Source: an uncultured virus (IMG/VR IMGVR_UViG_3300002231_000753) | Taxonomy: Duplodnaviria; Heunggongvirae; Uroviricota; Caudoviricetes; Schitoviridae | Length of the DNA stretch: 20,000 nucleotides | IMG/VR virus record: IMGVR_UViG_3300002231_000753 | Span: 56,094 to 76,093 of that record | Reading direction: 5' to 3' (one strand) | Shown: in pieces, positions 5,808-18,355 of the stretch | How the letters are laid out: each line of letters opens with the position of its first letter | Position numbering within the stretch: position 1 is the stretch's first letter | Program-made: the position numbers and the translations under genes | The notes under the pieces: model-generated | Seen by the model: the letters and a program-made list of their open reading frames with translations, nothing else | Told to the model about the DNA's origin: nothing | Databases searched by the model: none

Positions 5808-5851
5808 GGTAATGCTCTCCACAGAAGGGTGCCGAAGGCAACCATCTATAA

Positions 5852-7889: not shown

Positions 7890-8873
7890 TTAACTGAGTG
7901 CATATTCGGCATCTTTCATAGCTTTTCCAAGATCATTGGATAACTTTTGAACAGTTAGAGAAGTATTACCAGTGATTTGACGAAGTATTGATTGCAGTAA
8001 ATCAGACTCAGCTATCTCAATTAAGATATCTAAATAGGTCTGTCTAACAGCTTGCATGTTATTGGGGTGTGCTAGGAAGTTGTCATGGATCGTCAGCAGG
8101 TTAAATCTACATCTTCGAACCATTTCCCTACACACATATGCGTCCACTGAGTGGGTCACATTGGCCGGCAGAGAGACACCATACTTACTGGTACCAATGA
8201 CGTCCATCTGATAGGTAAATGTAGCCTTATCGAGCTCAGCTACCTCTATCTTCTTCTTCACCGGTACCATCACATCACAACGTACATAATGGCCGTCAGG
8301 CATGTACCATTCATGATATGGAGCATTTGGATTCCAACATGACTGAATGTCTTCCATGGCTTCACAAGCCCCTGGTAAGTCATCCTTGAGCGTCTGATAG
8401 AATGCATCTAACTCAGGGGTATCTTCACCGAATACAGCCTTTGGTTCAGCCTTAGAGTTATAAAAGTAAGTCATAATCGGGTGCTTGATCATCTTCCTAC
8501 TAATCTCATGGCCACATAAGTTACTCATGTGTTCAGCAGTCGATTCATATACGTCTTCACGCTTACCGGTATTGATTAGATTTACTTTAGCAGCTGTCTT
8601 GTGACACCCGGACAAACACGCCAACAACTGGATACCAGAAGCAGTAGCATCTAACCCCATAAGATGGCCAGAAGGACGATTCTCTTTAGCATCTTGATAA
8701 GCGTTCATTGCTTTAGCTAATAACTCGGGTTCATCAGCATCTGCTTGATCGGTTTTAATAGTACCTGATCTAACCCAAGCCAATCTTTCTGACCAAGTTT
8801 TCTTATCTAATCCATTACCATAGTTATTAGCAATATCAATTTCTAAATATTCTAGACCCGTAAGTTGTATCAT
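7890..8873 (-). CDS. N4-like RNA polymerase II, subunit 2 (catalytic half of a T7-type RNAP)
   Basis: IDIANNYG-x-x-LDK, motif A GLDATASGIQ, motif B RKMIKHPIMTYFY, NVTHSVDA, motif C TIHDNF. Confidence 0.93.
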   Translation of the reverse strand: MIQLTGLEYLEIDIANNYGNGLDKKTWSERLAWVRSGTIKTDQADADEPELLAKAMNAYQDAKENRPSGHLMGLDATASGIQLLACLSGCHKTAAKVNLINTGKREDVYESTAEHMSNLCGHEISRKMIKHPIMTYFYNSKAEPKAVFGEDTPELDAFYQTLKDDLPGACEAMEDIQSCWNPNAPYHEWYMPDGHYVRCDVMVPVKKKIEVAELDKATFTYQMDVIGTSKYGVSLPANVTHSVDAYVCREMVRRCRFNLLTIHDNFLAHPNNMQAVRQTYLDILIEIAESDLLQSILRQITGNTSLTVQKLSNDLGKAMKDAEYALS

Positions 8874-8875
8874 GA

Positions 8876-9064
8876 TTATTCCTCAGCGTGATTCATATCA
8901 AAACTCTTAATGAACTTATCATCTTTAAATGAATGTACGTTCATACAGTTAGCTTCATCTGGATCTAACATATATTCATGAGCTTTCTCGGCTGCTTCTT
9001 CTGGAGTATCTGCTGTCACTTGGATTAACCATTTAATAGTGAACTCTTTTGGTGTATCACTCAT
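8876..9064 (-). CDS. Small hypothetical protein between the RNAP subunits
   Basis: 62 aa with a V-x-A-D-T-P-E-E-A motif, translationally coupled (ATGA) to the upstream gene. Confidence 0.7.
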   Translation of the reverse strand: MSDTPKEFTIKWLIQVTADTPEEAAEKAHEYMLDPDEANCMNVHSFKDDKFIKSFDMNHAEE

Positions 9065-9981
9065 AACGTTTCCTTAATGCGTTCTTGTACAGCTAAGTTG
9101 AGCATTGCTTTCTTATAGCTATTACCTTGAATATTTACTTGATAACCTTGTGAGTACATTCTGCCTCTGAAGTCATATTTCCAACTAAACCAAAACTCAT
9201 TATCATTATTTAATAACAAGCTAACTATATGTTTAGTGCCCAATACCATACGATTGAAGTTATTCTTCTTTTCAATGGAATCGAGCGGCTTCTTAGATTT
9301 CTCAACAAAGTTATTAATAACGTATTCATCGATGGTTAGAGGAACAGCATTTAACTTATTGATTACATCAGTACTCAAGCATTTATTATGTTTGGTTTGC
9401 TTACCTAACAACAGGTGATCTCTTTCTTTAGCAAGATAAGCAGAATCAGTATTCCTATGTATTTCTAATGGTTCACAAATCAATGGAGGTAAGTAGCAAG
9501 TATTCTGAATGAACTGTTTAACATCATTATCAAACTGATAATTGCTCTTAACTAAGATACCGCCAGTAGGACTATCCTTTGAAGGAATGATCTCATAGAT
9601 ACTACATGGTTCAAGTACAGCAATTAATTCAGCCATAGTCTTGATACCATCAAATGGATCTTCATATTTTATCTTCTTAGCTAACTTGCCAACCACACTT
9701 TGAATAGTTTGAGTGTTACCGGACTCCATAATTGATATGAATATATCTGCTACTAACTCATCTAATTTATCGATGTATTTATATAGAAGATCAGTAACTC
9801 TTATGGTTTTACTATTGTGATAGGTGTTACGGATATTAATGTAGTGACTAATAAAGTGTACTCCTTTATCTACAGCTTCCTTAAACAGTGGATACTTTTC
9901 CATATTCATTATGATCACATGTTTAATCTGATCTTTAGAATATGTATTTTCAATACAAACTTGCTCTAGCCGTTTTAACAT
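9061..9981 (-). CDS. N4-like RNA polymerase II, subunit 1
   Basis: YLPPLICEP, then KYDFRGRMYSQGYQVNIQGNSYKKA (DxRGRxY motif of T7-type RNAPs). Adjacent to subunit 2. Confidence 0.92.
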   Translation of the reverse strand: MLKRLEQVCIENTYSKDQIKHVIIMNMEKYPLFKEAVDKGVHFISHYINIRNTYHNSKTIRVTDLLYKYIDKLDELVADIFISIMESGNTQTIQSVVGKLAKKIKYEDPFDGIKTMAELIAVLEPCSIYEIIPSKDSPTGGILVKSNYQFDNDVKQFIQNTCYLPPLICEPLEIHRNTDSAYLAKERDHLLLGKQTKHNKCLSTDVINKLNAVPLTIDEYVINNFVEKSKKPLDSIEKKNNFNRMVLGTKHIVSLLLNNDNEFWFSWKYDFRGRMYSQGYQVNIQGNSYKKAMLNLAVQERIKETL

Positions 9982-14335: not shown

Positions 14336-14524
14336 TTAATCAGAGGCTAATTCTTCTTTGAGTTCTTTGAGTCGAGACTTAGCTTCAAGGTCTTGTTCTT
14401 TAAGTGCTATTTCAGTTTCGTTGAGTAGCATTTCTGTGCTGTTCTCCAATGAGCCAAGTATATTGTCAATTGAGTTTAAGCTTCTATCTAGTGAGTCCAT
14501 GAGATGACGCCATAGTTTCTTCAT
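14336..14524 (-). CDS. First early gene (gp1 position), 62 aa helical protein
   Basis: MKKLWRHLMDSLDRSLNSIDNILGSLENSTEML..., AAGG RBS. The track's upstream extension to 14749 crosses promoter and terminus signals and is unlikely. Confidence 0.65.
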   Translation of the reverse strand: MKKLWRHLMDSLDRSLNSIDNILGSLENSTEMLLNETEIALKEQDLEAKSRLKELKEELASD

Positions 14525-14566
14525 AGTGATGTACCTTTGGTTGATTGAGGATGAATGTATCCATTG

Positions 14567-14581
14567 TATGTGCGCTAGCAC
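14567..14581 (-). promoter_or_regulatory. Candidate virion-RNAP hairpin promoter
   Basis: TAT-GTGC-GCTA-GCAC, a compensatory stem change relative to 14168..14182. Confidence 0.55.
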
Positions 14582-14715
14582 TGGTAGTTGCCAGAGGTTG
14601 GAGAGGACTGAGGATTCAAATAGGGGGGGGAGTCTTTTAGTTTTTAGTTCCGTCCAATACAGTACTGAACTCATACGTAATTTTAAAAATCTGAAAAACC
14701 TGAATTCTGAGAACG

Positions 14716-14731
14716 TGTTCCACGTGGAACA
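14716..14731. promoter_or_regulatory. parS: parS-like perfect 16-bp palindrome TGTTCCACGTGGAACA
   Basis: Matches the chromosomal ParB-binding consensus TGTTNCACGTGNAACA. Confidence 0.7.
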
Positions 14732-15042
14732 TACATGATGTAAATTCACTTTACTATCTTATGATTTTGGTTTGAGATGGTTTATATGCTATTGGTTAAT
14801 TATTACCCATAATCTGAGAGCCCTACAATCGCTCTGTATAGGTCGACAGAGAATACTTACGTGATAGGAACGAGAGAATGTTATTTAACTAGCTGAAGCC
14901 ACTGTAGGCGTAACGCAGTGAAGCCTATCCCTGTGGCTGAAGATAGGTGAATAACATGAATGAGTGACGCATTACGTAAGTATTATTTGGAGATCTATAT
15001 AATATTTTAAAAACTATACTTAATACTCAAATAATATGTGAA

Positions 15043-15348
15043 ATGGAGAAATGTATGTCTGTACTTAGAACTGTTAAAGATAGCCCTGGTACGTTTTTAT
15101 TTAACTGCCCTGGTTGTAATAGAGTCCATCAAATATGGACTAACAAAGATACCTCACCGAATAGCAATGTAACTTGGGGATTTAATGGTGATATGAATAA
15201 GCCAACGTTTACTCCCTCTCTGTTGGTTAAATGGGGTAGGGAATATGTTTGCCATAGTTTTATTAGAGATGGTAATTGGGAGTTCTTAGGTGACTGTACC
15301 CACAAGCTAGCGGGTAAAACTATTCCTATGGAACAGGTTGACACTTAA
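15043..15348 (+). CDS. DUF6527-like Cys/His protein
   Basis: FNCPGC-x-x-x-H ... W-x-FNGD-x-x-KPTFTPS ... CHSFIRDG-x-W-x-FL-x-DCTH-x-LAG. Confidence 0.7.
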   Translation: MEKCMSVLRTVKDSPGTFLFNCPGCNRVHQIWTNKDTSPNSNVTWGFNGDMNKPTFTPSLLVKWGREYVCHSFIRDGNWEFLGDCTHKLAGKTIPMEQVDT

Positions 15349-15429
15349 TCCATATTTACTGATACTTGGGGTGTCGAAATTTAGGTACACCCAAAAGACT
15401 GACCCCTCCAGTAGCTTAAACTGCTGGAA

Positions 15430-15705
15430 CTAAGCCCCAGCGTCAACTGGGGTTTTTTTATGCCCAGATTCTGTACCGTTGATTACTCCCGTAGAATCTT
15501 TTGGGTGTAAGCACCATTCCAAACTATTTAAAGTATCTGCATCCACTGCAGGATTTACTGTTATACCTATGGGTCGATCGTTCTTCCATTTCCTCGGTAT
15601 GAACTGCCCATATCTTAGATCCATCAAACTAACTGGATCGTACGTTCTTACCATTCCATTTGCATAACGTAATTCGTAATAGTATTTAGCATCTTCTGGT
15701 GCCAT
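15430..15705 (-). CDS. Hypothetical protein downstream of the tRNAs (possibly a 5'-truncated fragment)
   Basis: 91 aa ORF. The frame stays open upstream to the tRNA-Gln 3' end and there is no clear RBS. Confidence 0.45.
   Translation of the reverse strand: MAPEDAKYYYELRYANGMVRTYDPVSLMDLRYGQFIPRKWKNDRPIGITVNPAVDADTLNSLEWCLHPKDSTGVINGTESGHKKTPVDAGA
15433..15459 (+). terminator. Intrinsic terminator
   Basis: AGCCCCAG-CGTCAA-CTGGGGTT followed by a T run. Confidence 0.7.
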
Positions 15706-15761
15706 TGGACTTTCCCACGTATCAATGATGTTTACAGAGATTGTCAGAATAGCATGGAATT

Positions 15762-15835
15762 TGGAAGTGGATACTGGAGTCGAACCAGTATCAAGGGATT
15801 CAAAGGCCCTTGCTTTACCATTAAGCTAATCCACT
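15762..15835 (-). tRNA. tRNA-Gln(TTG)
   Basis: AGTGGAT/ATCCACT acceptor stem, D arm GCTTAATGGTAAAGC, anticodon loop CTTTGAA, T arm ACTGG-TTCGACT-CCAGT, encoded CCA. Confidence 0.9.
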
Positions 15836-15843
15836 ATTAAAAA

Positions 15844-15920
15844 TGGCATGCCTCCAGGGATTCGAACCCCGAACCAAGAAATTTGGAATTTCCCGCTCTA
15901 CCAGACTGCGCTACATCCCG
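15844..15920 (-). tRNA. Chimeric/pseudo tRNA: tRNA-Pro-like 5' end joined to the body of tRNA-Trp(CCA)
   Basis: Anticodon arm GGAAA-TTCCAAA-TTTCT, T arm CGGGG-TTCGAAT-CCCTG and CCA end are intact. The 5' CGGGATG cannot pair with the 3' GAGGCAT, and the D stem GCGC/GAGC is mismatched. Confidence 0.7.
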
Positions 15921-15941
15921 TATTCTTTTAATCCATAAACT

Positions 15942-15972
15942 AAAAAACCCCAGCTTTTTAGGGCTGAGGTCT
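15942..15972 (-). terminator. Attenuator terminator directly upstream of the tRNA cluster
   Basis: ACCTCAGC-CCTAAAAA-GCTGGGGT followed by TTTTT. Confidence 0.75.
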
Positions 15973-16028
15973 TTGGGTTATCAATCGTCTCAGCCATTTA
16001 TCTGCTGAGCACGTGCACTCACCAGAAG

Positions 16029-16079
16029 TTAATCAGGTTGTGGCCACGGTTGATAAGTATTTTTAGTAAATGATTTCAT
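16029..16079 (-). CDS. Putative attenuator leader peptide MKSFTKNTYQPWPQPD
   Basis: ATG AAA TCA TTT ACT AAA AAT ACT TAT CAA CCG TGG CCA CAA CCT GAT TAA. Confidence 0.65.
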   Translation of the reverse strand: MKSFTKNTYQPWPQPD

Positions 16080-16103
16080 ATTTTCACTATAGGTTAAATA
16101 TTA

Positions 16104-16270
16104 CAAAAAATAAACCCCCTTAGATCATTGTAGGCGGCTAGGAGTACCAGATCTAAGAGGGCTATTTCAATCAGCAAACCACTGCTGGGATTCAAACCAT
16201 GCAAGGAAACGGAACATGGTCACTGGTCGAATTAACAAAGGGGTCTAATTCAGTGCTAATCCAATTCAGT
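16104..16270 (-). ncRNA. Putative structured small RNA (~165 nt)
   Basis: Preceded by TTGTTA-N17-TAATAT, has multi-stem pairing, ends in CCCTCTTAGATC...GATCTAAGGGGG-TTTATTTTTT. Confidence 0.45.
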
Positions 16271-16276
16271 AAGGTG

Positions 16277-16305
16277 ATATTAGTTATTAATAATAATATT
16301 AACAA
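16277..16305 (-). promoter_or_regulatory. Sigma70-type promoter
   Basis: -35 TTGTTA (16305-16300), 17-nt spacer, -10 TAATAT (16282-16277). The AT-rich context lowers specificity. Confidence 0.45.
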
Positions 16306-16833
16306 GTATTAATTATTATAGGCCGTCATCGGTTGCGATTTTGCTCCCCCGAGCAAATATCGCATGTAGAGCGGCCAGTATATATATTATTAATTATATA
16401 CGTAATTATTTACCTATAGTCTGCAATCGATTTCGCTTCGCTCATCTCAATTGACTACCGGTAAATAATTACTGGTAAGTTAGGGAGATTTTTTAAGGGT
16501 TGCTACGAACTCATCCGAAGGATGGGTGAGCCGTCTTCTTTATTAGTAATAGTCTTTATTAGGTGGCCATTTTTGGCTAGCCAAATATGACCATATATGT
16601 AACTGGCCATATATGGCCATCGACTATATATTCTTACAGTATAAAAACAATAATTTTTGAATAACTTGAACAGACGCAAAATAGCGACTATAGTTCCTAC
16701 TACCTACAAGAAACAGCAATTTTACGTCGATCTAAGGTAGTTTAGGTAATACGTCACTAGCCACATTTGTCCGGCAATTTAGGATTCAAAGGAAATTGGG
16801 GCAGATATCCCACGAATTTAGGAAAAATCAGGT

Positions 16834-17196
16834 ATGCACATTAAGAAAAGTTTACCCAACAGAAGCTTCACTAAAATGGATAATCGTATATTTGTTGATC
16901 CAAATCTAAGTGATGGCGCCATACGGTTATATGGGTTCCTGGCTAGTTTACCTAATGGTAAAACCATCGTGGATAAGTACATCATGAAGTCCATGGACAT
17001 ATCCCAACGAGTACTGTCTCGACGTAAAAGTGAGCTCAAAGAGGCTGGGTTAATCTATATGGAACAATTGGCCCCTCGGGTGTATGACCTTTATATTGGT
17101 TACCCAGACATGCCGGCAAAGAAGGTACGAGAGCACTGGAGAGATGATATTAGTGATAACTCGGAAGATACTGGGTCATTGAGAAGTGTTAATTAA
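16834..17196 (+). CDS. Winged helix-turn-helix protein resembling the N-terminal domain of phage replication initiators
   Basis: FTKMDNRIF-x-D-x-NLS-x-GA-x-RLY-x-FL-x-SLP ... IS-x-R-x-x-x-R-x-x-x-EL-x-x-x-GLI. Confidence 0.75.
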   Translation: MHIKKSLPNRSFTKMDNRIFVDPNLSDGAIRLYGFLASLPNGKTIVDKYIMKSMDISQRVLSRRKSELKEAGLIYMEQLAPRVYDLYIGYPDMPAKKVREHWRDDISDNSEDTGSLRSVN

Positions 17197-17488
17197 TAGG
17201 AGATAAGTCATGCCAGTAAGTTATTTAATAAATTGCCATATAGAATCCAGGAACCCGGTTAAACCGACATTCCCCCTTTTCACAGATAATCAGTAGTACT
17301 GGTCAGGTTGAACTGGTTCCTCAATTAGACGGTTATGCCATTATTCCGATAGAGGTATATAATCAATTGGTACCAAGTACTGCTAACCCTTCAGTTAGTG
17401 AATTCACTCGACGGATACATAAGACTGAAGGGTTTCCAGGAACACTTAAGACATTCAAACATTATCTAAAACAACTGAGAGCACAATC

Positions 17489-17716
17489 ATGACAGAAGAA
17501 AATGCAGTAACCGATGAAACCCAAGAAAAAATGGTCACAGTCACACGTGAGAAACAATATAAAGCGTTTAAACGTATGGCATTGCACCGTAAGTTCCAGT
17601 TCTTATTTAATACTCTCATGGACATTAAAGATGGAACAGATCAGGTGAAGTCAGAAGTAGCTGAAGTCGAAAGTGAAACACCTCCACCAGCAACTAACCC
17701 ATTTACTTACAGATAA
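17489..17716 (+). CDS. Hypothetical protein
   Basis: 75 aa ORF with plausible composition. Confidence 0.6.
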   Translation: MTEENAVTDETQEKMVTVTREKQYKAFKRMALHRKFQFLFNTLMDIKDGTDQVKSEVAEVESETPPPATNPFTYR

Positions 17717-17809
17717 TATTAATTAGCCCCGGTAGTGCTACGACGAATGAGCGCAAGCGAAATGAGAAGTAAAGCACGATTAGGGGCTAATGATTAAGGC
17801 AAGGAAACT

Positions 17810-18355
17810 ATGAATACAGACAACTTAAGACAACGCTTCGGATCTATACTTACCGATTTTGTTACCAGAATTCTCTCTGATGATTGTGACAATCAGAATA
17901 TTAATATTGTGACTAAAGAAGTTAATGCCACTGCAGAAGGCTTAGTCATAGCGTATTTGAAAGAAGCTGATCCATCAAAAGCAAGCCCCACTTCAGCAGA
18001 GCCCGTATATAAGAAACAATCCCGTTACCTCAATGGTGAAGGCAAGTTAGATCATATTGATGAATGTGCTCGGGACTTATCGCCAGAAGAATTTCGTGGC
18101 GCCATGAAGTTTACGTCAGGTAAGTACCTCAAACGATTGGGTAAAAAAGACAGCATTATCCAAGAGTTAGAGAAGATTCATGATTACATTGGTCGCTGGT
18201 TAGCGTATGAACGTAAGCAAAGTTCGCTTGCTATAAGACAGGATGATACCCAGTCATGTCAGCCAGATATGAATCAAATTATAGGTTCAGGGCGCACACT
18301 TAATACTAAATTTGATTTCCCTACGTCAGTAATGATAGACAAAATGGATAACTAA
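17810..18355 (+). CDS. DUF3310-like domain protein (family includes T7 gp1.7-like and SaV-like proteins)
   Basis: Y-x-x-GEG-x-x-DHID ... SPEEFRGAMKF-x-x-GKY-x-x-R-x-GKKD-x-x-x-QEL-x-KI-x-DY, AAGGA RBS. Confidence 0.7.
   Translation: MNTDNLRQRFGSILTDFVTRILSDDCDNQNINIVTKEVNATAEGLVIAYLKEADPSKASPTSAEPVYKKQSRYLNGEGKLDHIDECARDLSPEEFRGAMKFTSGKYLKRLGKKDSIIQELEKIHDYIGRWLAYERKQSSLAIRQDDTQSCQPDMNQIIGSGRTLNTKFDFPTSVMIDKMDN

Follow-up and report, generated by a model that had tools for sequence, protein, structure and literature searches.

A candidate leader-peptide attenuator in front of the tRNA genes of an uncultured N4-like phage

Can a phage let the ribosomes of the infected cell decide, by reading a short peptide, whether its spare transfer RNA (tRNA) genes are transcribed? 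The question is raised by a locus in the 76,093-bp record of an uncultured N4-like phage (IMGVR_UViG_3300002231_000753), of which the final 20 kb (hereafter the window, 20,000 nucleotides (nt) long, to which all coordinates refer unless the genome is named) were analysed. Positions ~16085 to 15937 of the minus strand would constitute a leader extending from promoter to terminator and attenuating a chimeric tRNA gene, a tRNA-Gln(UUG) gene and perhaps a frame of 91 amino acids (aa) behind it. The best single reading is a transcription attenuator sensed by ribosomes through a leader peptide, which is put forward tentatively and at somewhat less than an even chance, with an untranslated leader close behind. 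An attenuator of the his/trp type had already been proposed in the initial annotation, which was made from the sequence alone; its anatomy is indeed present and statistically unusual, but the proposal is weakened by the chimeric gene and by the dependence of its stop branch on kinetics.

The candidate leader peptide is a frame of 16 codons, MKSFTKNTYQPWPQPD followed by TAA (16029-16079, minus strand; ATG at 16079-16077, TAA at 16031-16029), and, as initially annotated, it carries Q-P-W-P-Q-P towards its end when read on the minus strand. Specifically, codons 10-15 are CAA CCG TGG CCA CAA CCT. The two strands of the genome together contain 1426 ATG frames of 8-40 codons, and only this one has a window in which six of six codons specify Gln, Pro or Trp; the runners-up (9 frames) reach four of six, and none reaches five. 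Across 65 long frames these three amino acids account for 8.4% of codons and CAA for 64% of Gln codons, so that the use of CAA for both Gln positions of the leader, to which the initial annotation had drawn attention, is true but unremarkable. The regulatory codons match the identities of the genes behind them, namely tRNA-Gln(UUG) and the Pro/Trp chimera. When Pro is set aside this match is weak (three Gln or Trp codons among six), so that the codons are significant only if the Pro-type half of the chimera is counted, as the tRNA-Pro and tRNA-Trp matches of its two parts justify.

The codon stretch is C-rich and forms one strand of a helix, a composition that raises the odds of Pro codons; our rough arithmetic for such a composition puts the chance per frame at roughly 1 in 1000 or below. 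It is here that the principal alternative enters, in which the locus is an untranslated structured leader or short RNA of ~140 nt, beginning near 16085-16079 or within a longer early transcript and ending at the terminator, while the tRNAs are supplied by constitutive leaky read-through. Its alternative helices would amount to no more than a stable fold, or to a switch operated by some factor that is not a ribosome, and the Q/P/W frame would be a coincidence of the C-rich helix strand, since codons that form a helix strand have a raised C and G content and thus more Pro and Trp codons. This is a substantial possibility although a doubtful one, and it leaves unexplained both the 1-in-1426 codon run and its match to the downstream gene identities.

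Behind the frame, the transcript contains five segments, S0 to S4, whose sequences and coordinates were confirmed exactly as first listed. S0 (16025-16016) and S1 (16011-16002) form a hairpin at 16001-16026; S2 (GGCUGAG, 15995-15989) follows; S3 (ACCUCAGCC, 15962-15970) is common to the antiterminator S2:S3 and to the 5′ arm of the terminator; and S4 (15954-15942) is contained in the intrinsic terminator T2 (AAAGACCUCAGC / GCUGGGGUUUUU, 15937-15974), all on the minus strand. The hairpin of this terminator (15974-15943) has 12 pairs, a loop of 8 and a U-rich tail (U6), with a free energy of -15.5 kcal/mol (-16.0 in another evaluation), and is the sole minus-strand terminator-like site found within 15000-17500. 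The pairings proposed at the outset are all possible, the isolated helices being worth -9.6 (S0:S1), -7.3 (S1:S2), -11.5 (S2:S3) and -15.5 kcal/mol (S3:S4). The unconstrained minimum-energy fold adds a further helix, in which segment 1 (UUAUCAA.CGUGGCCA, codons 9-13, 16041-16056, minus strand) pairs with segment 2 (S2 plus ACG.AUUGAUAA, 15978-15996, minus strand), enclosing S0:S1 and followed by the terminator. Segment 2 thus has segment 1, S1 and S3 as alternative partners, and the predicted fold is the classical 1:2 / 2:3 / 3:4 layout, which was absent from the initial description. The interaction between frame and spacer (segment 1:2) amounts to -8.8 kcal/mol, a value that is weak as statistics, being reached by 38/1000 shuffles of the frame.

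The statistics of the terminator itself are stronger. The gain from pairing its 5′ arm upstream, within the 54-nt spacer, is -9.8 kcal/mol, and only 4/1000 dinucleotide shuffles reach it. When the arm is extended by 1 or 2 nt into the loop, which is what the actual S2:S3 helix requires, none of 236 other terminator-like sites (drawn from this genome and from the loci of 80 relatives, and scored identically) has a competitor helix as strong. Antiterminator and terminator arm use the same CUCAGC hexamer, and three of the 17 CTCAGC/GCTGAG hexamers of the genome fall within the 47 nt of 15963-16009, in alternating orientation. The unit as a whole folds better than 200/200 shuffles (z = -3.9). The terminator switch is genuine and unusual. 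An untranslated leader would draw support from the fact that the unit minus its terminator is already more structured than 494/500 shuffles, but offers no reason why the strongest competitor helix among 237 terminators should sit here, and no Rfam family matches the leader.

How a ribosome might operate the switch can be followed by modelling its position on the transcript. With no ribosome, codons 9-13 would pair with segment 2, with S0:S1 inside, and S3, left free, would pair with S4, so that transcription stops; in the model the 1:2 helix is the first to form, and the full-length RNA has its minimum, at -40.1 kcal/mol, in 1:2 plus terminator. A ribosome detained on codons 10-15 (Gln, Pro and Trp) would strip segment 1 and leave S0 free, so that S0:S1 and S2:S3 could form together; no terminator would then arise and the polymerase would proceed into the tRNA genes. 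Indeed, with a ribosome placed on W12 (everything 5′ of 16031 covered), the full-length minimum is S0:S1 plus S2:S3, at -31.1 kcal/mol versus -30.0 for the terminator state, and the minimum-energy fold switches in this way only when the ribosome is modelled on the Q/P/W codons, which agrees with the initial proposal for a stall there. A ribosome at the stop codon would cover S0, whereupon S1 would take S2 and the terminator would form. With coverage to 16016, S1:S2 plus terminator is the full-length minimum, and to that extent the original account of this branch holds; the branch nevertheless depends on kinetics, as set out below. The anatomy of this mechanism is shown in the sequence, and its dynamics are what we infer; equilibrium folds show a coherent design, but give no proof of a kinetic mechanism.

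The genes in question were first described as three tRNAs (a Pro-like remnant, Trp(CCA) and Gln), but there are only two, as the Pro-like and Trp parts belong to one chimeric gene. The tRNA-Gln (UUG) gene (15762-15835, minus strand) is intact, being recognized by ARAGORN and matched by Rfam over its full length at 66.7 bits. The chimeric Pro/Trp tRNA-like gene (15844-15920, minus strand) has a local Rfam match of 34.1 bits that aligns to positions 8-63 of the tRNA model only, and ARAGORN forces it into an odd fold by borrowing D-arm bases for a mismatched stem. Its 5′ acceptor strand and D arm are of the tRNA-Pro type, and its anticodon arm (CCA), T arm and 3′ end of the tRNA-Trp type. Among the phage matches listed, the 5′ 33 nt correspond to annotated tRNA-Pro in 28/40, and the 3′ 45 nt to tRNA-Trp in 17/40 (with 4 tRNA-Arg and 19 unannotated, all at weak E-values). 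The 5′ strand CGGGAUG and the 3′ strand GAGGCAU pair at 2/7 positions in the canonical register, which makes a seven-pair acceptor stem impossible, and the gene is probably not functional. The simplest history would be a deletion between the D arms of adjacent Pro and Trp genes, and the ancestral array was very likely Pro-Trp-Gln. The chimera is, in its own right, a clear case of the decay of a phage tRNA array. Phage M5.1, whose tRNA-Gln is the nearest among those listed, was considered as a relative of the locus and set aside, having a different array and lacking this leader.

In terms of the attenuator, the switch would thus have evolved before a Pro-Trp-Gln array, the later D-arm deletion would have fused Pro and Trp, and present-day feedback would run only via tRNA-Gln. 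That the element is a working codon-matched sensor, built for the ancestral array, in which the terminator in front of the spare tRNA genes opens only on stalls for charged Gln, Pro or Trp tRNAs, is a claim made with reserve and somewhat against the balance of probability.

The decay of the array can also be taken further, so that 15760-16300 as a whole becomes a decaying tRNA array with leftover terminators, whose regulation is ancestral and no longer relevant, or never existed. The chimera, as evidence of a deletion within the array, is in keeping with this, as is the marginal likeness of the upstream unit (16300-16100) to tRNA-Gln (19/500 shuffles) and to a T arm (22/500). Furthermore, none of 80 relatives has tRNAs at this place, which points to an acquisition specific to the lineage, one that may already be in the course of being lost. 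Such a relic is nevertheless unlikely: the frame, the five segments and the terminator are all intact, as is tRNA-Gln; the missing Pro and Trp halves were searched for elsewhere in the window and not found; and the leader itself, considered as a decayed tRNA, bears no likeness to tRNAs (319 and 471/500 shuffles score equally) and yields nothing with ARAGORN at relaxed settings.

The upstream unit deserves a closer look. It contains another ATG frame of 16 codons with many Trp and Gln codons, MFRFLAWFESQQWFAD (16167-16217, minus strand), with four Q/W codons among seven, as found in only 5/1426 short frames. The frame ends 5 nt before a second terminator-like hairpin with a U tract (about 16101-16168, minus strand, the hairpin itself at about 16168-16107; -23.8 kcal/mol). 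As a second attenuator this unit was rejected, since it has no competitor helix (383 and 500/500 shuffles equal it), and the idea that the two terminated units are tandem duplicates was likewise rejected, 50/500 shuffles scoring equally. The upstream frame cuts both ways, being a second local frame rich in the same codons and yet arising without a switch; a similar terminated unit that lacks one is also in keeping with an untranslated leader.

Where would transcription and translation begin? The TATAGT that had been noted 6 nt before the ATG lies at 16091-16086, with no Shine-Dalgarno (SD)-like 4-mer upstream, again as described, and the lack of an SD is in line with an untranslated leader. 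It is a possibility that TATAGT sets the start of the host polymerase at or next to the A of the ATG, which would make for a leaderless start; its -35 is poor, and the site is missing from the list of the promoter scan. Leaderless starts are not far-fetched in this host, since the same spacing from a -10-like site to an ATG without SD recurs at two self-contained genes, the DUF6527 gene at 15043 (plus strand) and an HNH-like gene outside the window. The latter (site at genome 50233-50248, minus strand), a 225-aa frame, starts 9 nt after TATAGT, with TTGACT before it, and appears near-leaderless, with its own promoter. As no promoter-like site was found between 15942 and 15920, that is, between terminator and tRNA genes, the tRNAs therefore depend on read-through.

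The TATAGT is held within a 20-nt motif (GTAATATTTAACCTATAGTG, 16085-16104, minus strand) that is a possible promoter. The motif, of the form GTAAT(T)ATTTA(A)CCTATAGT, has three copies, at 16085-16104 (minus strand), 16402-16421 (plus strand) and 16472-16453 (minus strand), and no others elsewhere in the 76-kb genome at up to 3 mismatches to its 14-nt core; with only local copies, it was rejected as a genome-wide phage promoter. The second and third copies form a 20-bp inverted repeat with a 31-nt loop. Candidate roles for the motif are promoter, protein site, RNase III-type hairpin and end-related repeat.

The setting of the locus within the genome bears on the choice of polymerase. The split RNA polymerase II (RNAP2) genes of N4-like phages are present on the minus strand of the window (9061-9981 and 7890-8873), with 42.6% identity to the closest cultured phage and 55-56% to the closest proteins of a large protein collection (55-58% for the closest RNAP2 relatives overall). 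Minus-strand frames span from 15705 down to genome position 36974, and plus-strand frames from 16834 across the record ends to genome position 36962; these opposed directions mark 15705-16834 as the divergence point of an assembly that is circularly permuted. We infer, by analogy with N4, that this interval may be the left genome end, where early transcription would start. The locus heads the early gene block, and its two tRNA-like genes are the only ones in the entire genome. T7-like polymerases, that of N4 included, are to be expected here from knowledge of the family, a further point in favour of an untranslated leader.

According to passages of two papers (PMC4496689, PMC9163698), the early genes of N4 and LUZ7 are read by an injected T7-like virion polymerase from small hairpin promoters with a 3-nt loop. 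Five C-G(A/G)A-G hairpins with a stem of at least 4 bp exist in the genome, three of them on the template strand of the early block; these three are candidate N4-type virion-polymerase promoters with a C-GAA-G triloop (16512-16524 and 5830-5840, plus strand, and genome 55040-55052). The first of them lies upstream of the whole leader region and is a candidate to start transcription near 16506 toward the tRNAs. The GCGAAGC at 16441-16435 was rejected as an N4-type promoter, as its stem is only 2 bp.

A further alternative is a switch to which a tRNA binds directly, as in a T-box, or which a protein sets in place of a ribosome. CAA and UGG triplets are present in the leader, and on inspection of the sequence the UGGC beside S2 could pair with the GCCA 3′ end of the chimera. 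This reading is nevertheless very improbable: over 14500-18000 no T-box was matched at E up to 1, and over 15920-16320 neither T-box nor other Rfam families matched even at E up to 10; T-boxes are much longer than this element, and nothing here resembles a Stem I-like platform.

Comparison with relatives was attempted in several ways. Megablast of 15400-16700 against phage records gave no match, and blastn of the same interval gave tRNA-level matches only, in 4 records. Searches of IMG/VR for close relatives with the 91-aa frame, a 120-aa frame and RNAP2 returned one 20-residue match and nothing more, exact 20-mer and 22-mer scans of IMG/VR returned 0 matches, and a metagenome scan with the 91-aa frame returned one non-syntenic match, lacking a tRNA. 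Codon-degenerate scans for YQPWPQP gave 12 viral matches, none with a tRNA within 700 nt, and 0 and then 17 matches in bacterial genomes, none with a tRNA within 500 nt. RNAP2 was more productive as the query of a profile search, yielding 80 loci at 36-58% identity, of which none has a same-strand tRNA upstream of RNAP2. When phage tRNA clusters were examined for upstream mini-frames with matching codons, as the initial annotation had suggested, the 8 clusters in the loci of 7 relatives offered no upstream frame with a run of cognate codons.

None of these tRNA-bearing relatives (L007, L008, L010, L032, L040, L056 and L059) has its tRNAs at the head of the early block; they lie 2.6-8 kb downstream of RNAP2 in six, and on the other strand in L010. 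L007 has a strong terminator 20-54 nt before a tRNA-Arg and does so without a leader frame, which is in keeping with an untranslated leader. One DNA sequencing run contains the present locus, in four identical low-depth contig pieces that show no microdiversity; the runs listed include none recorded as RNA.

Several observations weigh against a ribosome-sensed attenuator. At the level of initiation, frame 16079-16029 has no SD, whereas 46/94 long frames have an SD-like 4-mer. At the level of the switch, S2:S3 remains the most favourable fold as S3 emerges even when S0 is covered, and termination after full translation therefore rests on kinetics; moreover, with the strict terminator arm (-6.5 kcal/mol), 8/236 real terminators have an equally strong competitor. 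At the level of the codons, the W/Q-rich frame at 16217-16167, which has no antiterminator, is an example of such a frame arising here with no switch attached, and the locus was drawn from very many windows, so that coincidences of such a size at a single locus must be expected occasionally. At the level of the genes, only Gln is intact among the three cognate tRNAs, the Pro/Trp gene having no acceptor stem. The position in the early block, with the candidate hairpin at 16512-16524 upstream, would by analogy imply transcription by a virion polymerase as in N4 and LUZ7, and if such a polymerase transcribes the leader, its coupling to ribosomes is doubtful. Finally, no relative holding the locus was found in any of the collections searched, and hence there is no support from conservation or covariation. 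As far as the sequence can be asked, the locus appears to possess every structural feature of an attenuator that is open to testing, but it is not filed here as a proven member of the class.

The remaining features of the neighbourhood are described for completeness. On the same strand as the tRNAs, and after them, the 91-aa frame (15430-15705, minus strand) may also belong to the unit; no Pfam or PHROG family matches it, and the sole relatives found are two distant, non-syntenic matches. The DUF6527 gene (15043-15348) lies on the opposite, plus strand inside the early block. It has a terminator of its own (15432-15455, plus strand) and a separate promoter-like site positioned so as to give a leaderless start, and it resembles an inserted self-contained gene. 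Toward the putative genome end, three of the genome's 17 TGGCCA copies are clustered in the 56 nt of 16564-16619 (a fourth is in the leader, at 16041), together with the near-palindromes TGGCTAGCCA and TGGCCATATATGGCCA, and this may be a protein-binding array. An interrupted 12-bp hairpin, GCGAT.TTTGCTC-GGGG-GAGCAAA-ATCGC, stands at 16330-16357 in an otherwise AT-rich spacer.

Leader-peptide attenuation is textbook knowledge for amino-acid synthesis genes, and the likeness of the present locus to the hisL, trpL, thrL and ilvL attenuators is considerable. It shares with them a short frame (16 codons, within the span of about 14-35 usual for such leaders and as in hisL of E. coli, where the regulatory run stands just before a final Pro-Asp-stop), regulatory codons clustered near its end, an intrinsic terminator with an overlapping antiterminator and an extra helix involving the regulatory codons. 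The relay of five segments recalls the his leader, and the joint sensing of several amino acids would recall the thr and ilv leaders. The differences are that (i) phage tRNA genes rather than biosynthetic enzymes would be regulated, (ii) no SD is present and (iii) the codons are interleaved (QPWPQP) instead of forming a homopolymeric run.

Closer in purpose is the pheM leader of pheST, in which attenuation by a leader peptide controls a gene of the translation apparatus and senses the charged tRNA on which the product acts; there, however, the product is a synthetase protein and the system bacterial, whereas here the genes are phage tRNA genes. T-box riboswitches (RF00230) similarly use a terminator/antiterminator switch to report the state of a particular tRNA, but they bind it directly, without translation. 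In mgtP, likewise, the structure of the downstream RNA depends on how fast a short frame containing proline codons is translated; mgtP senses proline supply for a virulence operon and, unlike the present leader, has no tRNA genes downstream. It is the proline-codon leader of Salmonella mgtCBR (PMC3641672). Full-text literature searches found no paper on leader-peptide attenuation of tRNA genes.

If the attenuator reading is true, a phage meters its spare tRNAs against the actual decoding speed of the ribosomes of the infected cell, by means of a compact sensor of the state of translation. Such feedback on tRNA supply would be of use with a poor host pool, or with one that a defence nuclease is cutting, and the sensor would explain why strong terminators stand directly before some phage tRNA genes. 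The more specific rationale given in the initial annotation, depletion of host tRNAs by anticodon nucleases, is speculation for which the sequence holds no evidence. A confirmed sensor would also provide a portable part of ~140 nt that reports a shortage of chosen tRNAs, and would be relevant to the contest of phage tRNAs with host defences that cut tRNA. What would be unusual even then is that, in this N4-like phage, the codon set of the leader would record a tRNA array that has since been partly lost.

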